A stretch of 39,764 bases of DNA from Thermoplasmata archaeon (GTDB taxonomy: Archaea; Thermoplasmatota; Thermoplasmata; RBG-16-68-12; JAJISG01), in NCBI GenBank assembly GCA_046759865.1, contig JBHIDB010000003.1, positions 1-39,764 on the forward strand, given 5' to 3'. This document shows, piece by piece, positions 10,561 to 29,282 of the stretch. The notes below the pieces were generated by a model. The model searched no databases, was not told the DNA's origin, and was given only the letters and a program-made list of their open reading frames with translations. The translations under genes were made by a program, and so were the position numbers. Position 1 is the stretch's first letter; each line of letters starts with the position of its first letter.

Positions 10561-10653
10561 AGCCCCGTGGTGTAGCGGTCAATCATGCGAGGCTCTGGAT
10601 CGTCCTCGCCGAGGAGAGACCTCGTGACGGCAGTTCGAATCTGCCCGGGGCTA
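10561..10653 (+). tRNA. tRNA-Gln(CUG) with a 20-nt intron (10599-10618) at position 37/38
   Basis: Acceptor stem AGCCCCG/CGGGGCT; anticodon stem CGAGG/CCTCG; anticodon CTG at 10595-10597; GTTCGAAT T-loop; BHB motif (CTCT paired with GGAG, 3-nt bulges). CCA not encoded. Confidence 0.93.
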
Positions 10654-10661
10654 TCCTCCCC

Positions 10662-11234
10662 TCACGCGGCCAAGAACCGCCGTAGCTCGGGTTCCCCCTC
10701 GATGGGGCCACGGACGACCAGCAGATCCTCAGCAAGGAGCGGGGTGTTCTCGTCGGGTCCGTAGATCCAGGACCCCTCGCGACGGATGGCAAGGACCCAG
10801 GCTCCCGTCTCCGAGGCCACCTTCAACTCCCCGAGGGTGTGCCCTGCGGCCGGGGACCGATCGGGCACCGTGAGGGTCGAGATGCTGGTATCGGATTCCT
10901 TCAATGCCTCGGCCACGACCGGGTGGGGCTCGATGTCCCGGAGGACGACGTCGGCGATCTGGAGGGCCCCGTCCGCGATGTCCTCGATGGAGGAGGCCAT
11001 GCGGATGAAGACGAGGGCCTTGTCCACGTCCCCGTCCTCGGTGGCCCGCCGGATGGCCTCTTCCTGAATCTCTTGGTCCCACCCGTCGATTCTATCCTCC
11101 AACTCGACGACGTGCCGGGCAATCTCCACATTGTCGTAGAGGAGGGCGGAGTAGGCGAGGTCCACCATGAGTTCGGAGGTGTCCTTCATCTCCAGCAAGG
11201 TGTCTTCGATGGTCACGTTCTGGCCTCCGGCCAT
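10662..11234 (-). CDS. PhoU + TrkA-C (RCK_C) domain protein
   Basis: EMKDTSELMVDLAYSA PhoU-like helix; GAWVLAIRR...DLLVVRG RCK_C. Confidence 0.88.
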   Translation of the reverse strand: MAGGQNVTIEDTLLEMKDTSELMVDLAYSALLYDNVEIARHVVELEDRIDGWDQEIQEEAIRRATEDGDVDKALVFIRMASSIEDIADGALQIADVVLRDIEPHPVVAEALKESDTSISTLTVPDRSPAAGHTLGELKVASETGAWVLAIRREGSWIYGPDENTPLLAEDLLVVRGPIEGEPELRRFLAA

Positions 11235-11809
11235 GCTTCCTCGCCCCGAGCGTACCGGCTGAGGCGCTGAAAGCCGTCCTCCGTGCCGCGTAGAACGAGG
11301 AGGTCCCCCTCCCGCAAGACCGCCTCCCCTTCCGGGTCGTACGTCCACTTCCGGCCGCGCTGGAGGGCAATGATTCGCATCCCGGTCTCGGTCTCCACCC
11401 GCAGGTCCCCGATGGCCCGCCCAGCCAGGGTCGACCCCGCGAGGAGACGCGCCGCCCGGAGCTTCTCGTCGGCCTCTCCCAGGACAAACGGCAGGAAAGG
11501 GCGCGCCTCGATCCGTTGCTCGAGCAGGTCCACGATGTCGCCGGCCCCGTTGGAGATGGTCTCGGCGGCGGATGCCACCTGGAGGATCCCCGCAAGCTGT
11601 TCGGCGTCCTGCTTGGTCCGACTGGCCATCAGGGCGATCATCCGGATCTGGTACCGGAGGTAATCCATCCGTTCCTCCAGGGCCCGGACCTCCGTGCCGA
11701 GGTCGTCGCTGTCGAAGACGACGGCGGCGTAGGCGAGGTCGACGATGTGCTCGCTGATGTCCTTCATCTCCACGAGGAGGTCCTTGACGCTCATAGGGGT
11801 GTACTCCAC
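11213..11809 (-). CDS. PhoU + TrkA-C (RCK_C) domain protein (paralog)
   Basis: EMKDISEHIVDLAYAA; TGMRIIALQRG...GDLLVLRG. GTG start following an SD-like GGGAG. Confidence 0.88.
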   Translation of the reverse strand: MEYTPMSVKDLLVEMKDISEHIVDLAYAAVVFDSDDLGTEVRALEERMDYLRYQIRMIALMASRTKQDAEQLAGILQVASAAETISNGAGDIVDLLEQRIEARPFLPFVLGEADEKLRAARLLAGSTLAGRAIGDLRVETETGMRIIALQRGRKWTYDPEGEAVLREGDLLVLRGTEDGFQRLSRYARGEEAWPEART

Positions 11810-11829
11810 CTCCCGATACGCGTCCGACG

Positions 11830-12387
11830 TCAGAGGATCGCCCCCAGCACGAGGACGAGTAAGGCGATCCCCAGCAGGTCCCCCATGGTGGTGACGATGG
11901 GAGTGATGAAGTTGTCCGGGTCCAGGCCCCGGGAGAAGGAGAGGAGGGCCACGGCCACGGTGACCAGGATCAGGACCCCCGCGAGCATGAGGCCAGTGGT
12001 CAGCATGAGGAAGAGGAGCACCTCCACTCCGAAGGGCGGCGTTACCCCCAGGCCTACCGCAGCCCCGTATATGAAAATTGCCAGGAGGGTGAAGGTCAAC
12101 AGGTAAAGGGCCAGCGCATCGCGGATCTGAGTCTGCAGGCCGCGGTCGGTGAGGCGGACGGAAAGGCTCCCTGTGTAGAGTCCGGAGGTGAGGCGGGCTC
12201 CCAAGACGGTCCCGACGTTCCCACCGACGCCGTTGATGACAGGCACCAGGATGAGGAGGAAGGGGAAGGCGAGAAAGATCGGTTCGTTGAGGTTCAGGAT
12301 CTGGCCCGCCACGAGGTTGAACACCACGAGGAAAACGAGGGCCGGCACACTCTGTTGGACGATGCCGGTCCAGCGGTAGAAGGTCAC
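11830..12387 (-). CDS. MgtE/SLC41 membrane-domain divalent cation transporter subunit
   Basis: GTG at 12387 overlaps the upstream TGA. Motifs PVINGVGGN and DPDNFITPIVTTMGD. Confidence 0.88.
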   Translation of the reverse strand: MTFYRWTGIVQQSVPALVFLVVFNLVAGQILNLNEPIFLAFPFLLILVPVINGVGGNVGTVLGARLTSGLYTGSLSVRLTDRGLQTQIRDALALYLLTFTLLAIFIYGAAVGLGVTPPFGVEVLLFLMLTTGLMLAGVLILVTVAVALLSFSRGLDPDNFITPIVTTMGDLLGIALLVLVLGAIL

Positions 12388-12941
12388 GGAATTCCCCCGA
12401 CGAGGAGAGCGACGAGGAAGAGGAGGAGCACGGTGAGGATGTCCCCCACCGTGGCCAGGGTGGGGGTGGTGACGTTGTCGGGGTCCAACCCCCGCCGAAA
12501 GGCCAGAATCAGGACAGCGAAGGTGACCCCCACCTGCAGCAGCCCCGCCACAGTCCCCGCCACGGTAGCGATCAGGACGAGCTTCCCCAGCCCGGCCGAG
12601 GGAAGGCCCAGAAGGACGGTCGTGAAGTGTCCCAGGACCCCCGTGAGGGCGGACAGGGTCAGGCTCAGGAAGACCGCCGCCAGGACCCCCTGGTGCGCCT
12701 CCTCGTTCCACAGGTTCCTACGTTCGATGAGGCCCATGTGGATGGCGGATCCCATGCGGGCACCCATGGCCCCGCTGACCCCCCCGCGGAGGGCGATGAG
12801 AACCGGGACCATCACAATGAGACCAGGAGTCCGCCGAAGGATGCCCTCCATCTCCTGGAAGAGGAGGCCCGCCAGCACCAACCCGAGCCCCGAGAGGAGG
12901 AGAACGGGAAGCGCCTCCCGGTACACGGAGGGGAGGGGCAT
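12384..12941 (-). CDS. MgtE/SLC41 membrane-domain subunit (paralog)
   Basis: Five hydrophobic segments and DPDNVTTPTLATVGD. TTTTTAG TATA-like box about 20 nt upstream. Confidence 0.88.
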   Translation of the reverse strand: MPLPSVYREALPVLLLSGLGLVLAGLLFQEMEGILRRTPGLIVMVPVLIALRGGVSGAMGARMGSAIHMGLIERRNLWNEEAHQGVLAAVFLSLTLSALTGVLGHFTTVLLGLPSAGLGKLVLIATVAGTVAGLLQVGVTFAVLILAFRRGLDPDNVTTPTLATVGDILTVLLLFLVALLVGGIP

Positions 12942-13406: not shown

Positions 13407-14327
13407 TCAGTCGGCCAGCACGCGGACCGGGAGGAAGCCTGGGAGAAGGCTCGCCTTCATGGGGAGGGTCCCGACAAGCTCGCCATCCATCTCCGCCAGA
13501 ACGGTATCGTCGGAGCTCGCGCGCACGGACTTTCCTCGGGTGAAGGAGACCTTGGGATGAGAGAGGTGCTCCCCTCGGCGAAGCTTGCCCAGGCTCCCCA
13601 CCGCCTCCCCGACGCTGACGTCGCCAAAGATCACCACGTCCAGCAGACCGTCGTCGAGGCGAGCTCCCGGGGCGGGCCGCAGGCCGCTCCCGAAGTATTG
13701 TCCGTTGGCTACGATGACCCCATTCATGGAGCCCTCGGCAAACGTCGTGCCGTCCACGTCCACACGAATGGGCTTGTTGCGGTAGGAGAGGAGGGTGATG
13801 AGGGTGGCCATCAGGAAGGCCATCCGCCCGCCGAGGGGCTTCGCGCTCCGATTCACGCGTTCGACGACTTCGCCGCCCGAGCCGGCCTCGAGGATGTTCG
13901 CGAAGTACCTCGTCTGGGAGATGCCCTGGAAGTCGACGCACTCGCAGCGGCCCACGTCCACCGGCAGGTAGGTCGAGGAAGCGAGGATGTCCGCGGCGTG
14001 CTCCAGCCCCCGCGGGAGGCCCAGGGTCTTCGCATAGTCGGTCCCACTTCCGACGGGAATAATCGTGAGGCGCGCCCGCGGGTCCGCAAGGGCGTCGTCC
14101 CGGACAAGGCCATTTAGGGCCTCGTTCACGGACCCGTCTCCTCCCACGACTCCCACCTCGGTCTCCCCGCCCCGTACGGCGTCGCCCACCAGGGTTGTCG
14201 CAGATCCAGGCCCCGTAGTCAGGGCCGCCTCGAGGCCGGGTACCAGGTCTCTCAGCACGTCTTCGAGGGCGGACCATTCGCGCCCTACGCGGCCGCCCGC
14301 GGCGTGGGGGTTGACGACCAGAAGCAT
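13407..14327 (-). CDS. Diacylglycerol/lipid kinase, YegS/Rv2252/BmrU family
   Basis: NPHAAG, GGDGSVNE, GSGTDY, NGQYFGSG and DGE motifs. TGATG overlap with the upstream gene. Confidence 0.92.
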   Translation of the reverse strand: MLLVVNPHAAGGRVGREWSALEDVLRDLVPGLEAALTTGPGSATTLVGDAVRGGETEVGVVGGDGSVNEALNGLVRDDALADPRARLTIIPVGSGTDYAKTLGLPRGLEHAADILASSTYLPVDVGRCECVDFQGISQTRYFANILEAGSGGEVVERVNRSAKPLGGRMAFLMATLITLLSYRNKPIRVDVDGTTFAEGSMNGVIVANGQYFGSGLRPAPGARLDDGLLDVVIFGDVSVGEAVGSLGKLRRGEHLSHPKVSFTRGKSVRASSDDTVLAEMDGELVGTLPMKASLLPGFLPVRVLAD

Positions 14328-15943
14328 CAGGCCGCCCCCCGGAACGCCTCGTTGGACGCCACTTCGCCGCGATACCGCTCCAACTCCTCCTCGATGCGGG
14401 CGGCGTCCCACCCCAACTGGGATGCCATGAGTCGGGCCACATCCGGGGCCGCGCGGAGGCCGTGGTCCGGGTCTTCATCCATGATCCGGGTTCTCCGCGC
14501 CAGGACGTCCTCCAGCCGGAGAGCCATCTCGTGGTGAACGGCATAAACCGCCTCGCCGCGAACGTAGGGGAGGTCCACCACCATCGGGTCGGTAAGGCCT
14601 TCACCCGTCAGGCTCGCGTAGACCTCGGGCAACTCCAGGCCGAAGGCCGAGGACAGATGGTCGATGGCCTCCTGGCCGAGGCCCAGAGCCTCGCCACGCT
14701 CCCGCCCCCAATCGGAGCCTTCCGTCAGAACGGGAGTCGGCGCCTTTGGATCCCCTGGCGAGGGGCGGAGATCTCGGATGGCTCGGCGGAGTACGCGCCG
14801 CGCCACGATCGGATAGGTCGTGAGCTTCCCCCCGATGAGGGTCACCAGGCCCGGGGCATCCCGGATGATTTTCTCTCGCCGGCTCACCGAAGATTCAGGG
14901 ACCCCGAGTCGGCCCACGAGGGGTCGCAGGGCGGCATAGCTACTGATCACGTCCTCAGATGTCGCATTGGCCAACGGAAAGGTACCGTTGAGGGCGTCCA
15001 GGAGGTAGGCCGCGTCCTCGGGCTCGGCGCGCGCCTCCTCGGGGGGTCCCCGATGGTCCGTGTCGGTCGTCCCGACGAGGGTCAGGTTGCGCCAGGGGAG
15101 GGCGAACACGAAACGCCCGTCCTCGGGGGCTCGCATGACCACCGCATTCATGTTTCCCACCTGGGTCCGGGGGAGGAACAGGTGCACCCCCTTGGTGGGC
15201 CGCAACCGGGGTGACCTCGCCATCATCCCCCGGACGCTATCGCTCCACGGGCCCGTCGCGTTAACCACGACGTCGGAACGGACCTGATAGCGTCGGTCTC
15301 CCAAACGATCACGGAAAGCGACCCCGACAACGCGCCCGCCCTCCCGCCGAAGGGTCTCGACCCGGGCGTACGTGAGGATGTGGGCTCCCGCCTCGAAAGC
15401 CATCTTGGCGTTCAGGAGCACCAACCGAAAGTCGTCCGTCCAGCAGTCGTAGTAAAAGGCGCCACCGAGGAGCTCCTCCCGCCGGAGGCGGGGTTCGGCG
15501 GCGACGACCTCGCGTGGCGTCAGCCTGCGGTGTTTCCCCACGTTTGTGTATCCGGAGAGGTAGTCGTAGAACCAAAGGCCGAGGCGCGTAACCCAGTGTC
15601 GACCTTCGCCCCGATAGAAGGGGATGAGAAAGCGCAGCGGCTTGACCAGGTGCGGATAGTGGGTGCGTAGCCAGTGGCGCCCCCGGCTCGCCTCCCGAAC
15701 GAGGCGAACCTTCCCGTCCCTCAGATATCGGAGTCCGCCATGAATCAGGCGGGAAGACCGGCTGCTCGTCCCGCCCCCCACATCCCCCTGGTCCAGGAGG
15801 AGCACGCGATACCCGCGCCGGGTCGCCTCGAGGGCGATGCCGCAGCCGTTGATGCCGGCTCCCACGACGACGATGTCGTACCGGTTCGGCAACTCCCGAA
15901 GGAGCGCCTCGCGGCCGTTTGCGTCAAACCCCTGCAGGTTCAA
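14327..15943 (-). CDS. glpD: FAD-dependent glycerol-3-phosphate dehydrogenase/oxidase (GlpD/GlpA family)
   Basis: VGAGING, TSSRSSRLIHGGLRYL, NATGPW, GTTD and GGKLTT motifs. Confidence 0.92.
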   Translation of the reverse strand: MNLQGFDANGREALLRELPNRYDIVVVGAGINGCGIALEATRRGYRVLLLDQGDVGGGTSSRSSRLIHGGLRYLRDGKVRLVREASRGRHWLRTHYPHLVKPLRFLIPFYRGEGRHWVTRLGLWFYDYLSGYTNVGKHRRLTPREVVAAEPRLRREELLGGAFYYDCWTDDFRLVLLNAKMAFEAGAHILTYARVETLRREGGRVVGVAFRDRLGDRRYQVRSDVVVNATGPWSDSVRGMMARSPRLRPTKGVHLFLPRTQVGNMNAVVMRAPEDGRFVFALPWRNLTLVGTTDTDHRGPPEEARAEPEDAAYLLDALNGTFPLANATSEDVISSYAALRPLVGRLGVPESSVSRREKIIRDAPGLVTLIGGKLTTYPIVARRVLRRAIRDLRPSPGDPKAPTPVLTEGSDWGRERGEALGLGQEAIDHLSSAFGLELPEVYASLTGEGLTDPMVVDLPYVRGEAVYAVHHEMALRLEDVLARRTRIMDEDPDHGLRAAPDVARLMASQLGWDAARIEEELERYRGEVASNEAFRGAA

Positions 15944-17520
15944 GCCCCGTCCTCCCAGACCTTGCCCGGGTTCATGACCCCCTTCGGATCCAGGCTGTCC
16001 TTCAGTGCCTGGAGCGCCCGCAAGCCCACGGGCCCCAGCTCACGTTCCATCCATTGGCGGTGGTCGATGCCGATCCCGTGGTGGTGGCTGAGGGTGCCAC
16101 CCAGGCTCAGGATCCGCTCCGTAGCCGCCGCTTTCAGGGCCTGCCACTGCGGGATCTCTGTGCCGGCCGCCCGGGAAGTGAGGAGGGTGAAGTAGAGGGA
16201 CCCCCCGTCCCGGTAGGCGTGAGATAGATGGCAAAGAACGAGTCCCGGCTTTCCGGCGGCCGCGTAGGCCCCTTCGAGGGCTTCCTTCACCCCCGCGTAG
16301 AGCGTTTCGAGGTTGCTCCAGGATGCCGCGGTCTCGAGGGTCTCCACGACGAGGCCTCGCGCCATGAGCTCGTCCCGGAGGTACGGAGCCCGATAGTACT
16401 CCTCCTCCCACCCGGACGCCGCTTCACGGCCCAGATCCCAGACGCGGCCCTCGGTCCAGAGTTCGACGGCCCGTGCCATTTCCTCGGGGACGCGCTCCGC
16501 CGAACCCTCGAACTCGAGGAGGACGAAGGAGCCGGCGTCCTTGCTCTTCAGGCCCCGGGTGGCCATGAGGGCCCGGGTCTCCTCCGCGTTGGACACCCGA
16601 ACCGTAGCAGGTCGGATGCTCGCCTGGATCATCGCGCGGCATCGATGGAGGGCCTGAGGGAAGGAGGGGAGCAGGAACCCGCGCCCGGCCCGGACCTCCG
16701 GCCGAGGATGGGTTCGAATGACCGCTTCCACCACAACGCCCAGGCGGCCCTCGGAGCCCAGAAAGAGCTCCCTGAGTTCAGGACCGGTGGACCGAGCGGG
16801 AACTTCGGTGGTTCGGACTTCTCCCGACGGCGTGACCACCGTCAGGGCCTGGACGAGGTTCTCGATGCGGCCGTACTTCCCCGAAGCGTGGCCAGCGGAA
16901 CGGGTGGCGACCCAACCACCGAGAGTTGAGAAGTGGAAGGATTGGGGGAAGTGGCCCAGGGTCAGGCCACGGCCCTCAAGGTCCTTCTCCAACGCCGGTC
17001 CGGAGATGCCAGTCTCGACACGCAGGAGGGCGGATTCCTCGTCGACCTCGAGCACCCGCTTGAGTCGATGGAGGTCGACGGTCAGGACGGCGTGATGGGG
17101 CCCCCGCACCGGGGAGACGCCGCCGAGGACGGAGGTCCCCCCGCCGAAGGGAACGATGGCGAGGCCCCGGGCGGCCGCAACCCGGAGGAGACTCGCGACC
17201 TCGCGCACGGCCCGCGGATGCGCGACGGCATCGGTGATGAAGTCCAAGTCGCCCGACCTGGCGCGAACGAGGTCCATGTAGCTCTTCCCGAGGGAGTGGA
17301 CAAGCCTTTCCTCCTCGTCCAGGCGGATCTCACAGATGGCCCGCACGGCATCGAGGTCATCCGGCGTTAGGGAGGTGGGCGGGAGGGTTGGCATCGCGGG
17401 GGGGCCGGCTGCAGGCTCGACGTGGATGCCCTGGGCCTCCAGATACTTGAGAACCCGCGGGAGCAACTCCTCCGGATACCCCCTGTCCAATGCCCCCCAG
17501 CCCCACCACTTGCTCCTCAT
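15940..17520 (-). CDS. Alkyl-dihydroxyacetonephosphate synthase-like FAD oxidoreductase (VAO/PCMH family)
   Basis: ATG at 17520 after GGAGGG. Motifs KWWGWG, PFGGGTSV, GHFPQSFHFSTLGGW, GSEG, ETLETA, HLSHAY..G.SLYF, SHHHGIG and MNPGK. Confidence 0.88.
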   Translation of the reverse strand: MRSKWWGWGALDRGYPEELLPRVLKYLEAQGIHVEPAAGPPAMPTLPPTSLTPDDLDAVRAICEIRLDEEERLVHSLGKSYMDLVRARSGDLDFITDAVAHPRAVREVASLLRVAAARGLAIVPFGGGTSVLGGVSPVRGPHHAVLTVDLHRLKRVLEVDEESALLRVETGISGPALEKDLEGRGLTLGHFPQSFHFSTLGGWVATRSAGHASGKYGRIENLVQALTVVTPSGEVRTTEVPARSTGPELRELFLGSEGRLGVVVEAVIRTHPRPEVRAGRGFLLPSFPQALHRCRAMIQASIRPATVRVSNAEETRALMATRGLKSKDAGSFVLLEFEGSAERVPEEMARAVELWTEGRVWDLGREAASGWEEEYYRAPYLRDELMARGLVVETLETAASWSNLETLYAGVKEALEGAYAAAGKPGLVLCHLSHAYRDGGSLYFTLLTSRAAGTEIPQWQALKAAATERILSLGGTLSHHHGIGIDHRQWMERELGPVGLRALQALKDSLDPKGVMNPGKVWEDGA

Positions 17521-17607
17521 CCCTCCGCGTCCATCGCATGGCGGTAGAATAGGTTTCTGCAGCCGGGGAGGTTTATGTAGCGGCCAGAGGATGCGTAGGC
17601 AAGGGAG

Positions 17608-18765
17608 ATGATCGAGAGGGAGCAAGTGTGGGACGTCCTGAAGAGCTACGGCTCCGACGCGGTGACGATTGGGGTCCTGGCCTCCCACTCGGCTCTGGAC
17701 GTCTGTGATGGGGCGGTGGACGAGGGCTTCCGAACCCTGACCCTCTGCGAGGAGGGCCGGGAGGAGCCCTACACGCGTTACTTCAAGGCGGAGCGTGACG
17801 CCAAGGGGCGGGTCCTTCGCGGCGTGGTGGACGAAGCCATCGTGCTCACGAAGTTCCGGGAGGCCATTTCGCAGGAGGTGCAGGACAGGCTCCGACGCAA
17901 GCGGGTCCTCTTCGTCCCGAATCGCTCCTTCGTCTCTTACGTGGGACTGGTGGAGGTCGAGGACGACTTCGGGTTGCCCATGGTGGGGAGTCGGAACCTC
18001 ATGCGGTCCGAGGAGCGGACGGAGGAACGGGGGTACTACTGGATCCTGGAGAAGGCGAGGTTGCCGTATCCTCGCCGCTTCAGGAGCCCAGACGAGATCG
18101 ACTCCTTGGCCATCGTGAAGCTCCCCCATCGGGTCAAGCGCCTGGAGCGGGGTTTCTTTACGGCGGCGAGCCACGAAGAGTACGAGGAGAAGTCGGAGCG
18201 ACTCCTAGAGGGGGGTGTCATCACCTCCGAGGACCTCGCAGCGGCCCGGATGGAGAAGTACATCCTGGGCCCTGTCTTCAACTTCGATTTCTTCTACTCG
18301 CCCCTCGACGGAATCGGAGAGCCACTGGAACTGCTGGGCATCGACTGGCGTTTCGAGACCTCCCTGGATGGCCACGTGCGCCTCCCTGCGGAGCAGCAAC
18401 TTACCCTCCAGGGCGAGGAGCGGGACCCAGAGTACGTGGTGACCGGCCACAACTCCGCGACCTTGCGGGAATCCCTCCTCCGCAAGGTCTTCCCCTTGGC
18501 CGAACGGTACGTGGAGGCGACCCAGCTCTACTTTCCGCCGGGCGTCATTGGCCCCTTCACCCTCCAGACCTGTGTGGACAAGGATCTGAATTTCTCCATC
18601 TACGACGTCTCTCCGCGCATCGGCGGCGGGACCAACGTGCACATGGCCGTGGGGCACCCGTACGGCAACGTCCTCTGGCGGTCGCGAATGAGCACGGGGC
18701 GCCGGGTGGCCATGGAGATCCGGCGGGCGCAAGAGTGGGGCCAGGTCGACCGGATCGTCACCTGA
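17608..18765 (+). CDS. purP: PurP-family FAICAR synthetase (ATP-grasp)
   Basis: ASHSALD, VPNRSF, ERGFF, IGPFTLQ, PRIGGGTN and MSTGRR motifs. Confidence 0.9.
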   Translation: MIEREQVWDVLKSYGSDAVTIGVLASHSALDVCDGAVDEGFRTLTLCEEGREEPYTRYFKAERDAKGRVLRGVVDEAIVLTKFREAISQEVQDRLRRKRVLFVPNRSFVSYVGLVEVEDDFGLPMVGSRNLMRSEERTEERGYYWILEKARLPYPRRFRSPDEIDSLAIVKLPHRVKRLERGFFTAASHEEYEEKSERLLEGGVITSEDLAAARMEKYILGPVFNFDFFYSPLDGIGEPLELLGIDWRFETSLDGHVRLPAEQQLTLQGEERDPEYVVTGHNSATLRESLLRKVFPLAERYVEATQLYFPPGVIGPFTLQTCVDKDLNFSIYDVSPRIGGGTNVHMAVGHPYGNVLWRSRMSTGRRVAMEIRRAQEWGQVDRIVT

Positions 18766-27701: not shown

Positions 27702-29282
27702 ATGGACGCTCGAGGGATACCAGAGGACTTGCTTGCCTTCTTCCGGGGGACGGGAGGCCACTCCCTTATCGTCAAGGGCTCGGCGGGGACAGGCAAGACG
27801 ACCCTTGCCCTCCAACTCATCGAGGAGCTCAACGACATCCCCGGGTCCTACTATCTCAGCCTTCGGGTCTCCGACACCTCCCTCTACCGGCAGTTCCCGT
27901 GGCTCCAAGCGAAAGTGCGAGAATCCGAATTGATGAAAATCGGGCAGCGCTTCCTGCGAAGCTTCGACGAGTTGAGCGACGAGGAACAGGAGCGGATCCG
28001 CCAGGCACGGAGTCTCCTCCGGGAAGTCTCCGAGGACGAGGTCCGCGTGAGCCGCGTCGACCGAACGGAGCTGAACAAGCTCGAAGGGCGCGTCGAGATG
28101 GGGCAGGAGGGCGGTGACATCTACGAAGGGGTGGAAGGGGGGGAGGTGACGGACGAGGGAGTTATCTTCGACCTCCACTCCGACCTGCCGGAGATGGACA
28201 TCGCGTACGAGGCGGTGGATAAGAATCTCCCCCAGAAGAGCCTCCTGGTCATCGACAGCATCGACGCGCTCAGCGAGCGGTATGGCATCCACCCCGCGAA
28301 GCTCATCAACACGATTCAGAAGGACTTGGTGGAGAACAGCAACACCAACGTGGTGTACATCCTAGAGCAGGGCGGCATTACGAAGCTGGACTACCTCGGC
28401 GACGGGGTGGTGGACATGCGTGACGTGGAGGTCAGGAGCCGACGGCTCCGTCTCATCGCCGTGGAGAAGCTGCGGGGCCGGGAGATTGCGCAGCACAAGC
28501 ACGTAATCACTCTGAAGGACGGACGGATCACGGCCTTCCCTCAGCGTCCCCCCGCAGGCCCCGGCAGGCGTCGCCGCTGGAAGGCTCGGAGCGACCTCGG
28601 GAAGCGTCTTTCCACCGGACACGAGGACCTCGATGCCCTCATCGGCGGGTTGGAGCGGGGCGGCGTTCTTGCCCTCCAGACGGACGCGCGGGTCCCGGAC
28701 GCCTTCGTGGACCCGCTCCTCATCGGCTTCGTCTCGAACTTCATGAGGAAACGACGGGGGGTGGCGTACGTCCCTCCCCGCAAGGTGGCGGCCGACGACG
28801 TTCGGGAGGCCCTCAAGCCCTACGTGGGAGCCCCTGCCCTCGACCGCTACCTCAAGGTTTTCGAGGCAGCCCCCCTGGGGACCCTCGAAAGCAGCACCGC
28901 TGCCCTCCAGATGGAGGGAGCCGACGTGGAAACGGATCTGCGGTGGAGCACGATTCAGTACCATCTCGCGGAGGCACGCCCGCCCCTCCTCTCCCTCCTG
29001 GCGTTCGACACCTTGGAGGCCGTCTACGGGCCGGATGTAGCCTCTCGGCTGACAGGACACCTCGCCGCGATTCGCAAGTCCAAGGACGTGTTCGTTGGCC
29101 TCACCGCTGCCGACTCCCCCTCCGCCGAGGCCTTGGCGAACCTCGCCTCCGTCCACATCCGCATCGAGAGTGTAGAGGGCGCCATCCTGCTCTACGGGGA
29201 GAAGCCCTACACCCCCTTTCACAGCCTGTCCTACGACCTGGAAGAGGGCTTCCCCCGGGCGCGTCTCCTCCCCGTCGTCTGA
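27702..29282 (+). CDS. GvpD/RAD55-like duplicated RecA-fold ATPase
   Basis: KGSAGTGKT Walker A, VIDSID, DGVV and EKLRG; degenerate second domain (STG..DLD). Possible in-frame ACG start at 27684. Confidence 0.82.
   Translation: MDARGIPEDLLAFFRGTGGHSLIVKGSAGTGKTTLALQLIEELNDIPGSYYLSLRVSDTSLYRQFPWLQAKVRESELMKIGQRFLRSFDELSDEEQERIRQARSLLREVSEDEVRVSRVDRTELNKLEGRVEMGQEGGDIYEGVEGGEVTDEGVIFDLHSDLPEMDIAYEAVDKNLPQKSLLVIDSIDALSERYGIHPAKLINTIQKDLVENSNTNVVYILEQGGITKLDYLGDGVVDMRDVEVRSRRLRLIAVEKLRGREIAQHKHVITLKDGRITAFPQRPPAGPGRRRRWKARSDLGKRLSTGHEDLDALIGGLERGGVLALQTDARVPDAFVDPLLIGFVSNFMRKRRGVAYVPPRKVAADDVREALKPYVGAPALDRYLKVFEAAPLGTLESSTAALQMEGADVETDLRWSTIQYHLAEARPPLLSLLAFDTLEAVYGPDVASRLTGHLAAIRKSKDVFVGLTAADSPSAEALANLASVHIRIESVEGAILLYGEKPYTPFHSLSYDLEEGFPRARLLPVV

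Follow-up and report, generated by a model that had tools for sequence, protein, structure and literature searches.

Why should an archaeon carry a homologue of alkyldihydroxyacetonephosphate synthase (AGPS), the enzyme of the committed step in animal ether-lipid synthesis, and why should its gene be joined to those for a homologue of the glycerol-3-phosphate (G3P) dehydrogenase GlpD and a lipid kinase? The locus that raises these questions lies on a contig of a Thermoplasmata archaeon (JBHIDB010000003.1 of assembly GCA_046759865.1), the whole of which, 39,764 nucleotides, was analysed and is referred to here as the window; it belongs to a 1.3-Mb metagenome-assembled genome (MAG) with a completeness of 83%. 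Three intact minus-strand open reading frames (ORFs), for an AGPS-like flavoprotein, a GlpD-like protein and a lipid kinase, overlap stop-to-start (Table 1), at exactly the coordinates reported in an earlier note on this DNA, which had drawn attention to the overlapping stop and start codons. The TTG start of the GlpD-like gene is backed by the conservation of residues 6–17 in the alignment consensus of its homologues. The operon is real and, as read from its sequence, translationally coupled. Its first product is a genuine archaeal member of the AGPS family, within a module that is common to many bacteria and has already been noticed there.

The flavoprotein and its two partners

The AGPS-like protein consists of a FAD_binding_4 domain (PF01565, 2.1e-33) and a FAD-oxidase_C domain (PF02913, 2.8e-41). 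It reaches no NCBIfam model, the best, glcD, scoring 156 bits where 568 are required, and hence carries the public label 'FAD-binding oxidoreductase'. Its best sequence matches in the Protein Data Bank (PDB) are AGPS from Dictyostelium (2uuu; 297.9 bits, 1.6e-87) and from guinea pig (Cavia; 4bby; 227.6 bits, 3.1e-66), with lower scores for mitochondrial D-lactate dehydrogenase (8jdc; 140.4 bits, 8.6e-40) and glycolate oxidase (9qgz; 107 bits). Arg308, Ser433, Tyr443 and His479–His481 align to Arg419, Thr568, Tyr578 and the His-His-His run of the Cavia enzyme, in which we take Tyr578, the histidine loop and Arg419 to have catalytic roles; PDB titles name AGPS mutant structures for Arg419His and Tyr578Phe. 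Across 75 homologues, the tyrosine and the three histidines are invariant, the arginine is at least 90% conserved, and an N-terminal KWWGWG motif (residues 4–9) is also retained. The AGPS-type motifs picked out in the earlier note are all present, namely, ETLETA (393–398), SLYF (441–444) and SHHHG (478–482).

The predicted fold points in the same direction. An AF2 model of the protein (pLDDT 92.2, pTM 0.90) gives Foldseek TMq values of 0.89–0.92 to mammalian AGPS (4bby, 4bca and 5ae2) over 538–553 columns, the N-terminal domain included and with 28% identity in the structural alignment, whereas the value for D-lactate dehydrogenase is 0.75. In a tree of 90 rows, 87 AGPS-type rows are split from three GlcD-like rows with a support of 100*, and the latter have G-E-H at the position of the AGPS H-H-H. 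The other placement that had been foreseen, with the D-lactate and glycolate dehydrogenases, is seen neither in sequence and tree nor in fold and HHH residues. On sequence, fold and catalytic signature, the flavoprotein is of AGPS type and not of D-lactate/glycolate dehydrogenase type. A stretch of ~20–30 residues after position ~321/322 (about 16555–16560 in the window) is absent from this protein and from those of its family, and is present in AGPS proteins from bacteria, eukaryotes and two other Thermoplasmata families (f4 and f17, introduced below).

The second protein combines a DAO domain (PF01266, 6e-59) with DAO_C, the alpha-glycerophosphate oxidase C-terminal domain (PF16901, 3e-25), and matches 3da1 (1.4e-79), GlpO (2rgh, 9.4e-77) and Escherichia coli GlpD (2qcu, 6.4e-64) in the PDB; it falls below the NCBIfam equivalog cut-offs, with 303.7 against 360 bits for PRK12266 and 299.9 against 352 for PRK13369. 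Arg54, His233, Arg317, Arg332 and Lys354 of E. coli GlpD, presumably substrate-site residues, align to Arg72, His254, Arg340, Arg355 and Lys373, and none of the five varies among 23 trio-linked homologues. The third protein has DAGK_cat (PF00781, 1.9e-23) and YegS_C (PF19279, 2.1e-34) domains, scores 132 bits with TIGR00147, above the cut-off of 118.65, and matches diacylglycerol kinases (4wrr and 3s40), BmrU (3t5p), DgkB (2qv7) and YegS (2jgr). The families given to both partners in the earlier note are borne out by these matches. A complex prediction for the AGPS-like protein with residues 1–470 of the GlpD-like protein, made without controls, returned no verdict, with scores of 0.00 and 0.00.

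Distribution of the trio and its natural fusions

At a threshold of E <= 1e-60, an AGPS-like match is present in 62 of 401 genomes of the class. Full-length strong matches occur in the window's own family (f1; 10 of 10 genomes), in a second family of the same order (f4; 15 of 34, some of them partial) and in a third family (f17; 10 of 59); weaker matches in other Thermoplasmata families have 31–35% identity and start near residue 40–95. The synteny comparison that the earlier note had called for finds the three genes adjacent in Thermoplasmata and in bacteria alike. Among the archaeal loci of the genome collection, the trio is adjacent in seven of eight, the eighth ending inside the GlpD gene, and among a further 17 loci it is adjacent in 13 (f4, 6/6; the second f1 genus, 2/2; f17, 5/9); as L032, from the second f1 genus, duplicates L008, there are 19 distinct loci in f1, f4 and f17 in addition to the window. 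In f1 and f4, the trio lies beside purP and tpt1 at the same place, such that it is either older than the split of these families or was replaced in situ. Moreover, the arrangement of Tpt1–PurP, trio and MgtE flanks recurs in independent MAGs of two families. The trio is thus stably inherited in three Thermoplasmata families, and its adjacency, there and in the bacterial loci described below, exceeds what chance would give. Among 33 flanking ORFs at eight loci, no further neighbour is conserved and no conserved reductase, fatty-acyl reductase (FAR) or acyltransferase is found; isolated cases are L013 with an FGGY kinase, L028 with an alpha/beta hydrolase, and L023 and L028 (family f17) with ArsR-type regulators.

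The catalytic signature and the gene context go together in archaea. In a MAFFT alignment (--retree 2) from which nine long rows were left out, both the tyrosine and the HHH run are kept in 21 of 22 archaeal trio rows, the exception having HQH, and in all five bacterial ones. By contrast, each of the four f17 copies that have no GlpD or kinase neighbour has lost the signature: in L026 and L027, Tyr443 is missing and HHL replaces HHH, and in L029 and L030 both the tyrosine and the histidine run are gone. These four copies may be decaying or may have some other function.

In bacteria, four of the six loci from the genome collection have the trio adjacent, a fifth has an AGPS–GlpD fusion, and the sixth contig breaks off within the first gene. 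The bacterial trio occurs in two Chloroflexota MAGs, bacterium BMS3Bbin03 and, with a different gene order, a Rhodothermales MAG, and plasmid p1 of Streptomyces fungicidicus is annotated, in order, with a G3P dehydrogenase/oxidase, a TetR regulator, an FAD-binding oxidoreductase and a YegS/Rv2252/BmrU lipid kinase (the bacterial trio loci being L011, L012, L013, L015 and L043). This distribution, over Chloroflexota, Rhodothermales and a Streptomyces plasmid, indicates a widespread prokaryotic module rather than an archaeal invention. AGPS-like genes have other company as well: on a plasmid of Mycobacterium dioxanotrophicus, the sole companion is a TetR gene, and a Roseovarius plasmid has one beside genes for a CaiB CoA-transferase and a GMC oxidoreductase. 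Many of the homologues are named alkyldihydroxyacetonephosphate synthase by JGI. In addition, the accessible part of the 2021 GliR paper describes a Pseudomonas aeruginosa cluster composed of an FAD-binding oxidoreductase (PA3026), a GlpD homologue (PA3025), an FGGY kinase (PA3024) and a YegS lipid kinase (PA3023), which is induced more than 40-fold together with phospholipase C (PMC8151288). Where the earlier note had seen unexpected archaeal lipid biochemistry, the wide bacterial occurrence of the trio and the prior description of this related cluster show that it is not peculiar to archaea.

Perhaps the most telling observation is that the first two genes are repeatedly fused. In a Desulfarculia genome, they form a single ORF of 1155 residues, and a further 18 protein clusters of 1050–1146 residues (P0123–P0139 and P0146) carry the FAD-oxidase and DAO/DAO_C domain sets together; by name, the fusions come from Desulfarculia, Riflebacteria, KSB1, Calditrichaeota and Pseudomonadota. 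The AGPS part is N-terminal in most of them and C-terminal in P0146 and P0140, the latter having a different domain set with GMC-oxidoreductase domains added. The fusion label requires at least six changes on the tree. We regard such repeated, independent fusion as the strongest evidence for joint action of the AGPS-like and GlpD-like enzymes, which would most simply catalyse successive steps.

In the AGPS-like tree, archaeal and bacterial rows are interleaved, which makes transfer between the domains likely. This quick tree joins f1 to f17 (95*) and sets f4 in another place, with support of only 82–86 at the deep nodes; forcing the 26 archaeal rows into one clade is not rejected in an AU test (p 0.173). 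In small GlpD and kinase trees, f17 lies apart from f1, f4 and the bacteria. The module was likely shared by horizontal transfer between bacteria and Thermoplasmata.

The host is archaeal, as indicated by the housekeeping genes of the contig and by the nearest public records, which are MAGs named Thermoplasmata or Methanomassiliicoccales. The operon is flanked by genes for PurP, Tpt1, a class-I LysRS, the archaeal D-aminoacyl-tRNA deacylase DTD2 and PAC2, and around it are also found a 2-oxoacid:ferredoxin oxidoreductase, PolX and an intein-bearing Hel308-type helicase. Four DNA sequencing runs, all from one study labelled hydrothermal vent metagenome, contain this stretch and may include the source sample. 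The MgtE flank is kept with the trio in family f1. Further along the contig, the tRNA-Gln(CTG) gene possibly contains an intron.

Table 1. Coordinates of the operon, of other features of the window and of selected features elsewhere (window positions unless a contig or locus is given)
Feature	Position	Strand	Remarks
AGPS-family FAD flavoprotein, 526 aa	15940..17520	-	ATG at 17520, TGA 15942-15940
GlpD/GlpO-family FAD-dependent glycerol-3-phosphate dehydrogenase-like protein, 538 aa	14327..15943	-	TTG at 15943, TGA 14329-14327
Soluble YegS/Rv2252/BmrU (DgkB-like) lipid kinase, 306 aa	13407..14327	-	ATG at 14327, TGA 13409-13407
TTGA overlap, 4 nt, AGPS-like stop / GlpD-like TTG start	15940..15943	-	sequence
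TGATG overlap, 1 nt shared, GlpD-like stop / kinase ATG start	14325..14329	-	sequence
Divergent intergenic region, 87 bp, putative promoter	17521..17607		ORF layout; promoter function presumed
purP	17608-18765	+	divergent from operon, 87 bp away; Pfam/NCBIfam identity
Run of two genes with PhoU + TrkA-C domains and two ORFs with an MgtE domain	10665-12941	-	just downstream of operon
tRNA-Gln(CTG), 93 nt	10561-10653	+	longer than plain tRNA
Hel308-type archaeal helicase, 1203 aa	788-4396	-	intein-interrupted (Hint_2 + LAGLIDADG homing-endonuclease domain)
GvpD-like / KaiC-type ATPase gene	27702-29279	+	GvpD_P-loop, GvpD_bR2
Haem-copper oxidase subunit I and beta-oxidation-type enzymes	own genome C37:2879-4204, C51, C53, C87, C28		
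AGPS–GlpD fusion ORF, Desulfarculia genome	L010:5830-9297	+	

A candidate lipid-degrading route and its rivals

What the trio might do depends on the company that its host provides. Partner enzymes were sought with Pfam models in 14 MAGs of the family, six of them at least 90% complete, with named control genomes matching as expected. No PF01553 acyltransferase (GNPAT/PlsC family) was found in any of the 14, whereas control matches were obtained in 10 of 14 named genomes; similarly, neither an FGGY glycerol kinase nor a GDPD glycerophosphodiester phosphodiesterase was found in any of them. Matches to the GpsA domain are weak (E 2e-10 or worse), the best of them lying in ORFs of ~660 residues, and the ORF of this kind in the window's own genome is a strong match to 3HCDH_N (FadB-like). 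Three weak matches to PF07993 (FAR-type) were obtained in the own genome, and the best of these was rejected as a fatty-acyl reductase, as it is a generic NAD epimerase. With the canonical partners not found and the GpsA matches weak, neither the canonical AGPS route nor simple glycerol breakdown has much support; likewise, there is no evident source of free G3P.

With respect to the host membrane, we considered and rejected a lineage devoid of the sn-glycerol-1-phosphate (G1P) pathway, as G1P dehydrogenase is present in 74 of 79 genomes of the order and in all seven other genomes of the genus; an Fe-ADH_2 match was not found in the own genome, a miss that we ascribe to its incompleteness. The own genome also encodes three acyl-CoA dehydrogenases, two strong matches to 3-hydroxyacyl-CoA dehydrogenase and five AMP-binding ligases. 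A haem-copper oxidase is present in 11 of the 14 family genomes (533.9 bits in the own genome), and McrA was found in none of the 14. The apparent profile of the family is that of a heterotroph that respires oxygen and can oxidize fatty acids, though some of its relatives are labelled Methanomassiliicoccales.

The reading that we favour, if tentatively, is that the trio is a self-contained glycerolipid module that acts by phosphorylation, sn-2 oxidation and AGPS-type cleavage or exchange of the C1–O bond, probably on scavenged lipids; the substrates, the order of the steps and the direction are our own projection. In the first step, the YegS/DgkB-type kinase would phosphorylate a monoradyl glycerolipid (1-acyl- or 1-O-alkyl-glycerol) to the 1-radyl-glycerol-3-phosphate. 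The GlpD-like flavoenzyme would then oxidize the free sn-2 hydroxyl to give 1-radyl-dihydroxyacetone phosphate (1-radyl-DHAP), with the electrons passing to the respiratory chain. Finally, the AGPS-type flavoenzyme would break or exchange the C1–O bond through enolization, formation of an adduct at flavin N5 and departure of the C1 substituent. The products would be DHAP and, for beta-oxidation, a fatty acid or alcohol, and the role in this organism would be the use or remodelling of scavenged bacterial- or eukaryote-type lipids, ether lipids included, rather than the building of its own membrane. Such a pathway, already put forward in the earlier note, is consistent with the natural AGPS–GlpD fusions and with the partners that were not found. 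The lean towards catabolism or salvage arises because the cluster has a kinase and an oxidizing dehydrogenase and no reductase, FAR or acyltransferase, because the cell can respire and oxidize fatty acids, and because the usual route of glycerol assimilation was not found. Such chemistry would work on ethers no less than on esters, which is the only obvious reason for employing an AGPS-type enzyme instead of an esterase.

It is conceivable, although on present evidence improbable, that the trio is more generally a hitherto unrecognized, oxygenase-independent route for dismantling 1-O-alkyl and 1-acyl glycerolipids in bacteria and archaea. The kinase would trap the lipid as its phosphate, the GlpD-like protein, as a 'lyso-lipid dehydrogenase', would make the sn-2 ketone, and the AGPS-type enzyme, working in the cleaving sense, would release the alcohol and DHAP. 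It would then be the first ether-lipid catabolic pathway of this kind, its dehydrogenase would be the first flavin-dependent one for alkyl/acyl-G3P, and it could bear on what becomes of ether-lipid biomarkers in sediments and around vents.

Several points weigh against the favoured pathway. We know of no flavin enzyme that oxidizes lyso-phosphatidate or alkyl-G3P at sn-2, and the mammalian AGPS reaction is not known to be readily reversible. The conserved substrate-site residues of the GlpD-like protein are just as compatible with plain G3P. Each of the six AGPS-like proteins from f4 (L016–L021) has a tyrosine in the column of Arg308, although the trio is still purP-adjacent. The absences rest on MAGs and Pfam models, so an unrecognized acyltransferase or G3P source may exist. 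An FGGY kinase lies 1 kb downstream of the trio in one Chloroflexota locus (L013), and no RNA sequencing run is listed for this stretch. The P. aeruginosa cluster likewise includes an FGGY kinase; in the available portion of the GliR paper, its authors, working from databases, lead glycerol through G3P to DHAP and on to alkylglycerone phosphate, and report no phenotype for deletion of the cluster (PMC8151288).

The alternative that we rate highest, although still as unlikely, is that the AGPS-like protein carries out no AGPS chemistry and works here as a dehydrogenase, or as a redox partner, with another substrate derived from glycerol or of the hydroxy-acid kind; the trio would then amount to a variant unit of glycerol-phosphate catabolism. 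In fold, the protein belongs to the VAO/FAD-linked oxidase superfamily, whose members are mostly dehydrogenases, the f4 proteins have no equivalent of Arg308, and PA3026 is annotated, in the part of the paper that could be consulted, as an oxidoreductase acting on CH-OH groups (PMC8151288). Against this must be set the near-complete retention of the tyrosine and HHH run within the trio, archaeal and bacterial, and their loss in the four archaeal copies outside it, the G-E-H of GlcD-type proteins at the HHH position, and a whole-length fold match that takes in the AGPS-specific N-terminal domain.

Two schemes of ether-lipid synthesis are more doubtful. In the first, which proceeds in the canonical style, GlpD would give DHAP from G3P, an acyltransferase would convert this to acyl-DHAP, and the AGPS-like protein would exchange the acyl group for a fatty alcohol to yield alkyl-DHAP; we judge this a low-probability outcome, as is its implication that the archaeon makes some G3P-type alkyl ether lipids. 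A scheme of this kind has been drawn in silico for PA3026–PA3024, as far as the available text shows (PMC8151288), and the intact AGPS signature, the conserved GlpD substrate-site residues and the JGI naming of the homologues are all in keeping with it. However, neither the acyltransferase nor a source of G3P is evident in the family, given the absence of PF01553, glycerol kinase and GDPD matches from its 14 genomes and the weakness of the GpsA-like ones, and the best candidate reductase is a generic epimerase. Moreover, the fusion of non-consecutive enzymes would be less expected, the kinase would have no explained role, and the lineage possesses an ordinary G1P dehydrogenase.

The second scheme, which corresponds to the operation in reverse raised in the earlier note, would bypass GNPAT: the GlpD-like protein would oxidize lyso-phosphatidate to acyl-DHAP, the AGPS-like protein would convert this to alkyl-DHAP, and a reductase encoded elsewhere would produce alkyl-G3P. 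It accounts for fusions, which argue for consecutive steps, and for a family in which GNPAT was not found, and ester-to-ether exchange is the favourable direction of AGPS. Nevertheless, no PlsC/PlsB-type (PF01553) acyltransferase that could supply lyso-phosphatidate was found in the family, where PlsY was not searched for, no FAR is recognizable among the PF07993 matches of the own genome, and no reductase was found in or beside the cluster at the eight loci; an oxidize-then-reduce loop would, in addition, require an extra enzyme. We rate this scheme, too, as having little chance of being correct.

That the trio is bacterial DNA brought into an archaeal MAG by mis-assembly or mis-binning, as might be supposed from its closest non-archaeal relatives being bacterial, is in our view refuted by its position in the interior of a 39.8-kb contig amid PurP, Tpt1, class-I LysRS, DTD2, PAC2 and the Hel308-type helicase, and by the conservation of its flanks across independent MAGs of two families, and we give it next to no credence.

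The interest of the locus lies in the inheritance, by three Thermoplasmata families, of a full AGPS signature whose canonical partners were not found and which is coupled to a GlpD homologue instead, the two being fused time and again in bacteria. A vague 'FAD-binding oxidoreductase' label, common to very many bacteria, is thereby turned into a sharp and cheap biochemical question that covers the actinobacterial and Pseudomonas clusters too: can a GlpD-type enzyme oxidize lyso-glycerolipids, and is their chain then cleaved or exchanged by an enzyme of AGPS type? If so, there would be a new lipid pathway across the bacterial/archaeal 'lipid divide'. If not, what remains is a variant glycerol-phosphate unit that was gained by transfer.

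Relation to known systems

A literature search found no publication that describes the trio in archaea or AGPS–GlpD fusions, and none that joins AGPS, glpD and operon; within the reach of that search, the occurrence in archaea, the repeated fusions and the failure to find the partners count as new observations. A 2025 preprint on plasmalogen origins reports, in the portion available, no evidence of the pathway in Archaea (10.1101/2025.10.10.681575). AGPS is among the lipid enzymes recovered in a study on LUCA, in so far as its accessible text goes, and the available part of a Black Sea study gives counts of Agps homologues for phyla of bacteria, its supplementary tables possibly listing archaeal ones (PMC11868695).

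The closest relative in fold and signature is AGPS itself (also ADHAPS, EC 2.5.1.26), known from animals, Dictyostelium and Myxococcus xanthus (MXAN_1676), which has the same two-domain FAD fold with an N-terminal domain and shares the arginine, tyrosine and HHH signature with the window protein. Canonical AGPS, however, works with GNPAT and a fatty-acyl reductase, whereas the neighbours in the window are a GlpD homologue and a lipid kinase; in M. xanthus, according to the part of the plasmalogen preprint that could be consulted, the AGPS gene adjoins a FAR–GNPAT fusion gene (10.1101/2025.10.10.681575).

In gene content, the closest parallel is the GliR (PA3027) regulon of P. aeruginosa, in which the same three families are clustered, the likeness being one of description, taken from the accessible text, and not of compared sequences; the FAD-binding oxidoreductase is suggested there to turn acyl- into alkylglycerone phosphate. 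The window operon has the three families adjacent in one predicted transcription unit, as in the bacterial PA3026–PA3023-type cluster. The FGGY carbohydrate kinase (PA3024) and the AraC-type regulator that the latter has in addition are, by contrast, missing from the window operon, which is flanked by purP and mgtE-like genes.

A further parallel is actinobacterial. The AGPS-like protein of S. fungicidicus p1 has 43% identity over residues 65–519, with the signature kept, its match beginning at window residue 65, whereas its GlpD gene is divergent, separated by the TetR regulator and not translationally coupled. The earlier note had pointed to Mycobacterium tuberculosis (glpD1/Rv2251/Rv2252), where Rv2249c–Rv2252 presumably run as glpD, TetR, flavoprotein and lipid kinase. 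The parallel finds indirect support in the Streptomyces layout and in the naming, in the accessible text of one paper, of Rv2252 as a diacylglycerol kinase and of Rv2250A/Rv2251 as flavoproteins, Rv2251 being only an item in a list there (PMC6689984).

At the level of pathway logic, the trio resembles GlpK–GlpD glycerol catabolism, in which a kinase is likewise followed by a GlpD-family flavoenzyme that feeds DHAP to central metabolism; it differs in that the kinase is of DAGK/YegS type rather than FGGY type, and in the third, AGPS-type enzyme, which is coupled and sometimes fused. An animal alkylglycerol kinase, of a different kinase family, is described in the ACAD10 preprint, and that kinase domain co-occurs with AGPS. 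Finally, alkylglycerol monooxygenase (AGMO), which depends on oxygen and tetrahydrobiopterin, belongs to an unrelated family with an unrelated chemistry, and no homology is claimed. It is described, in the portion of the source available, as the only known enzyme that degrades alkylglycerols (PMC7911779). Were the catabolic reading of the trio correct, the two systems would arrive at the same outcome, the cleavage of a 1-O-alkyl ether.

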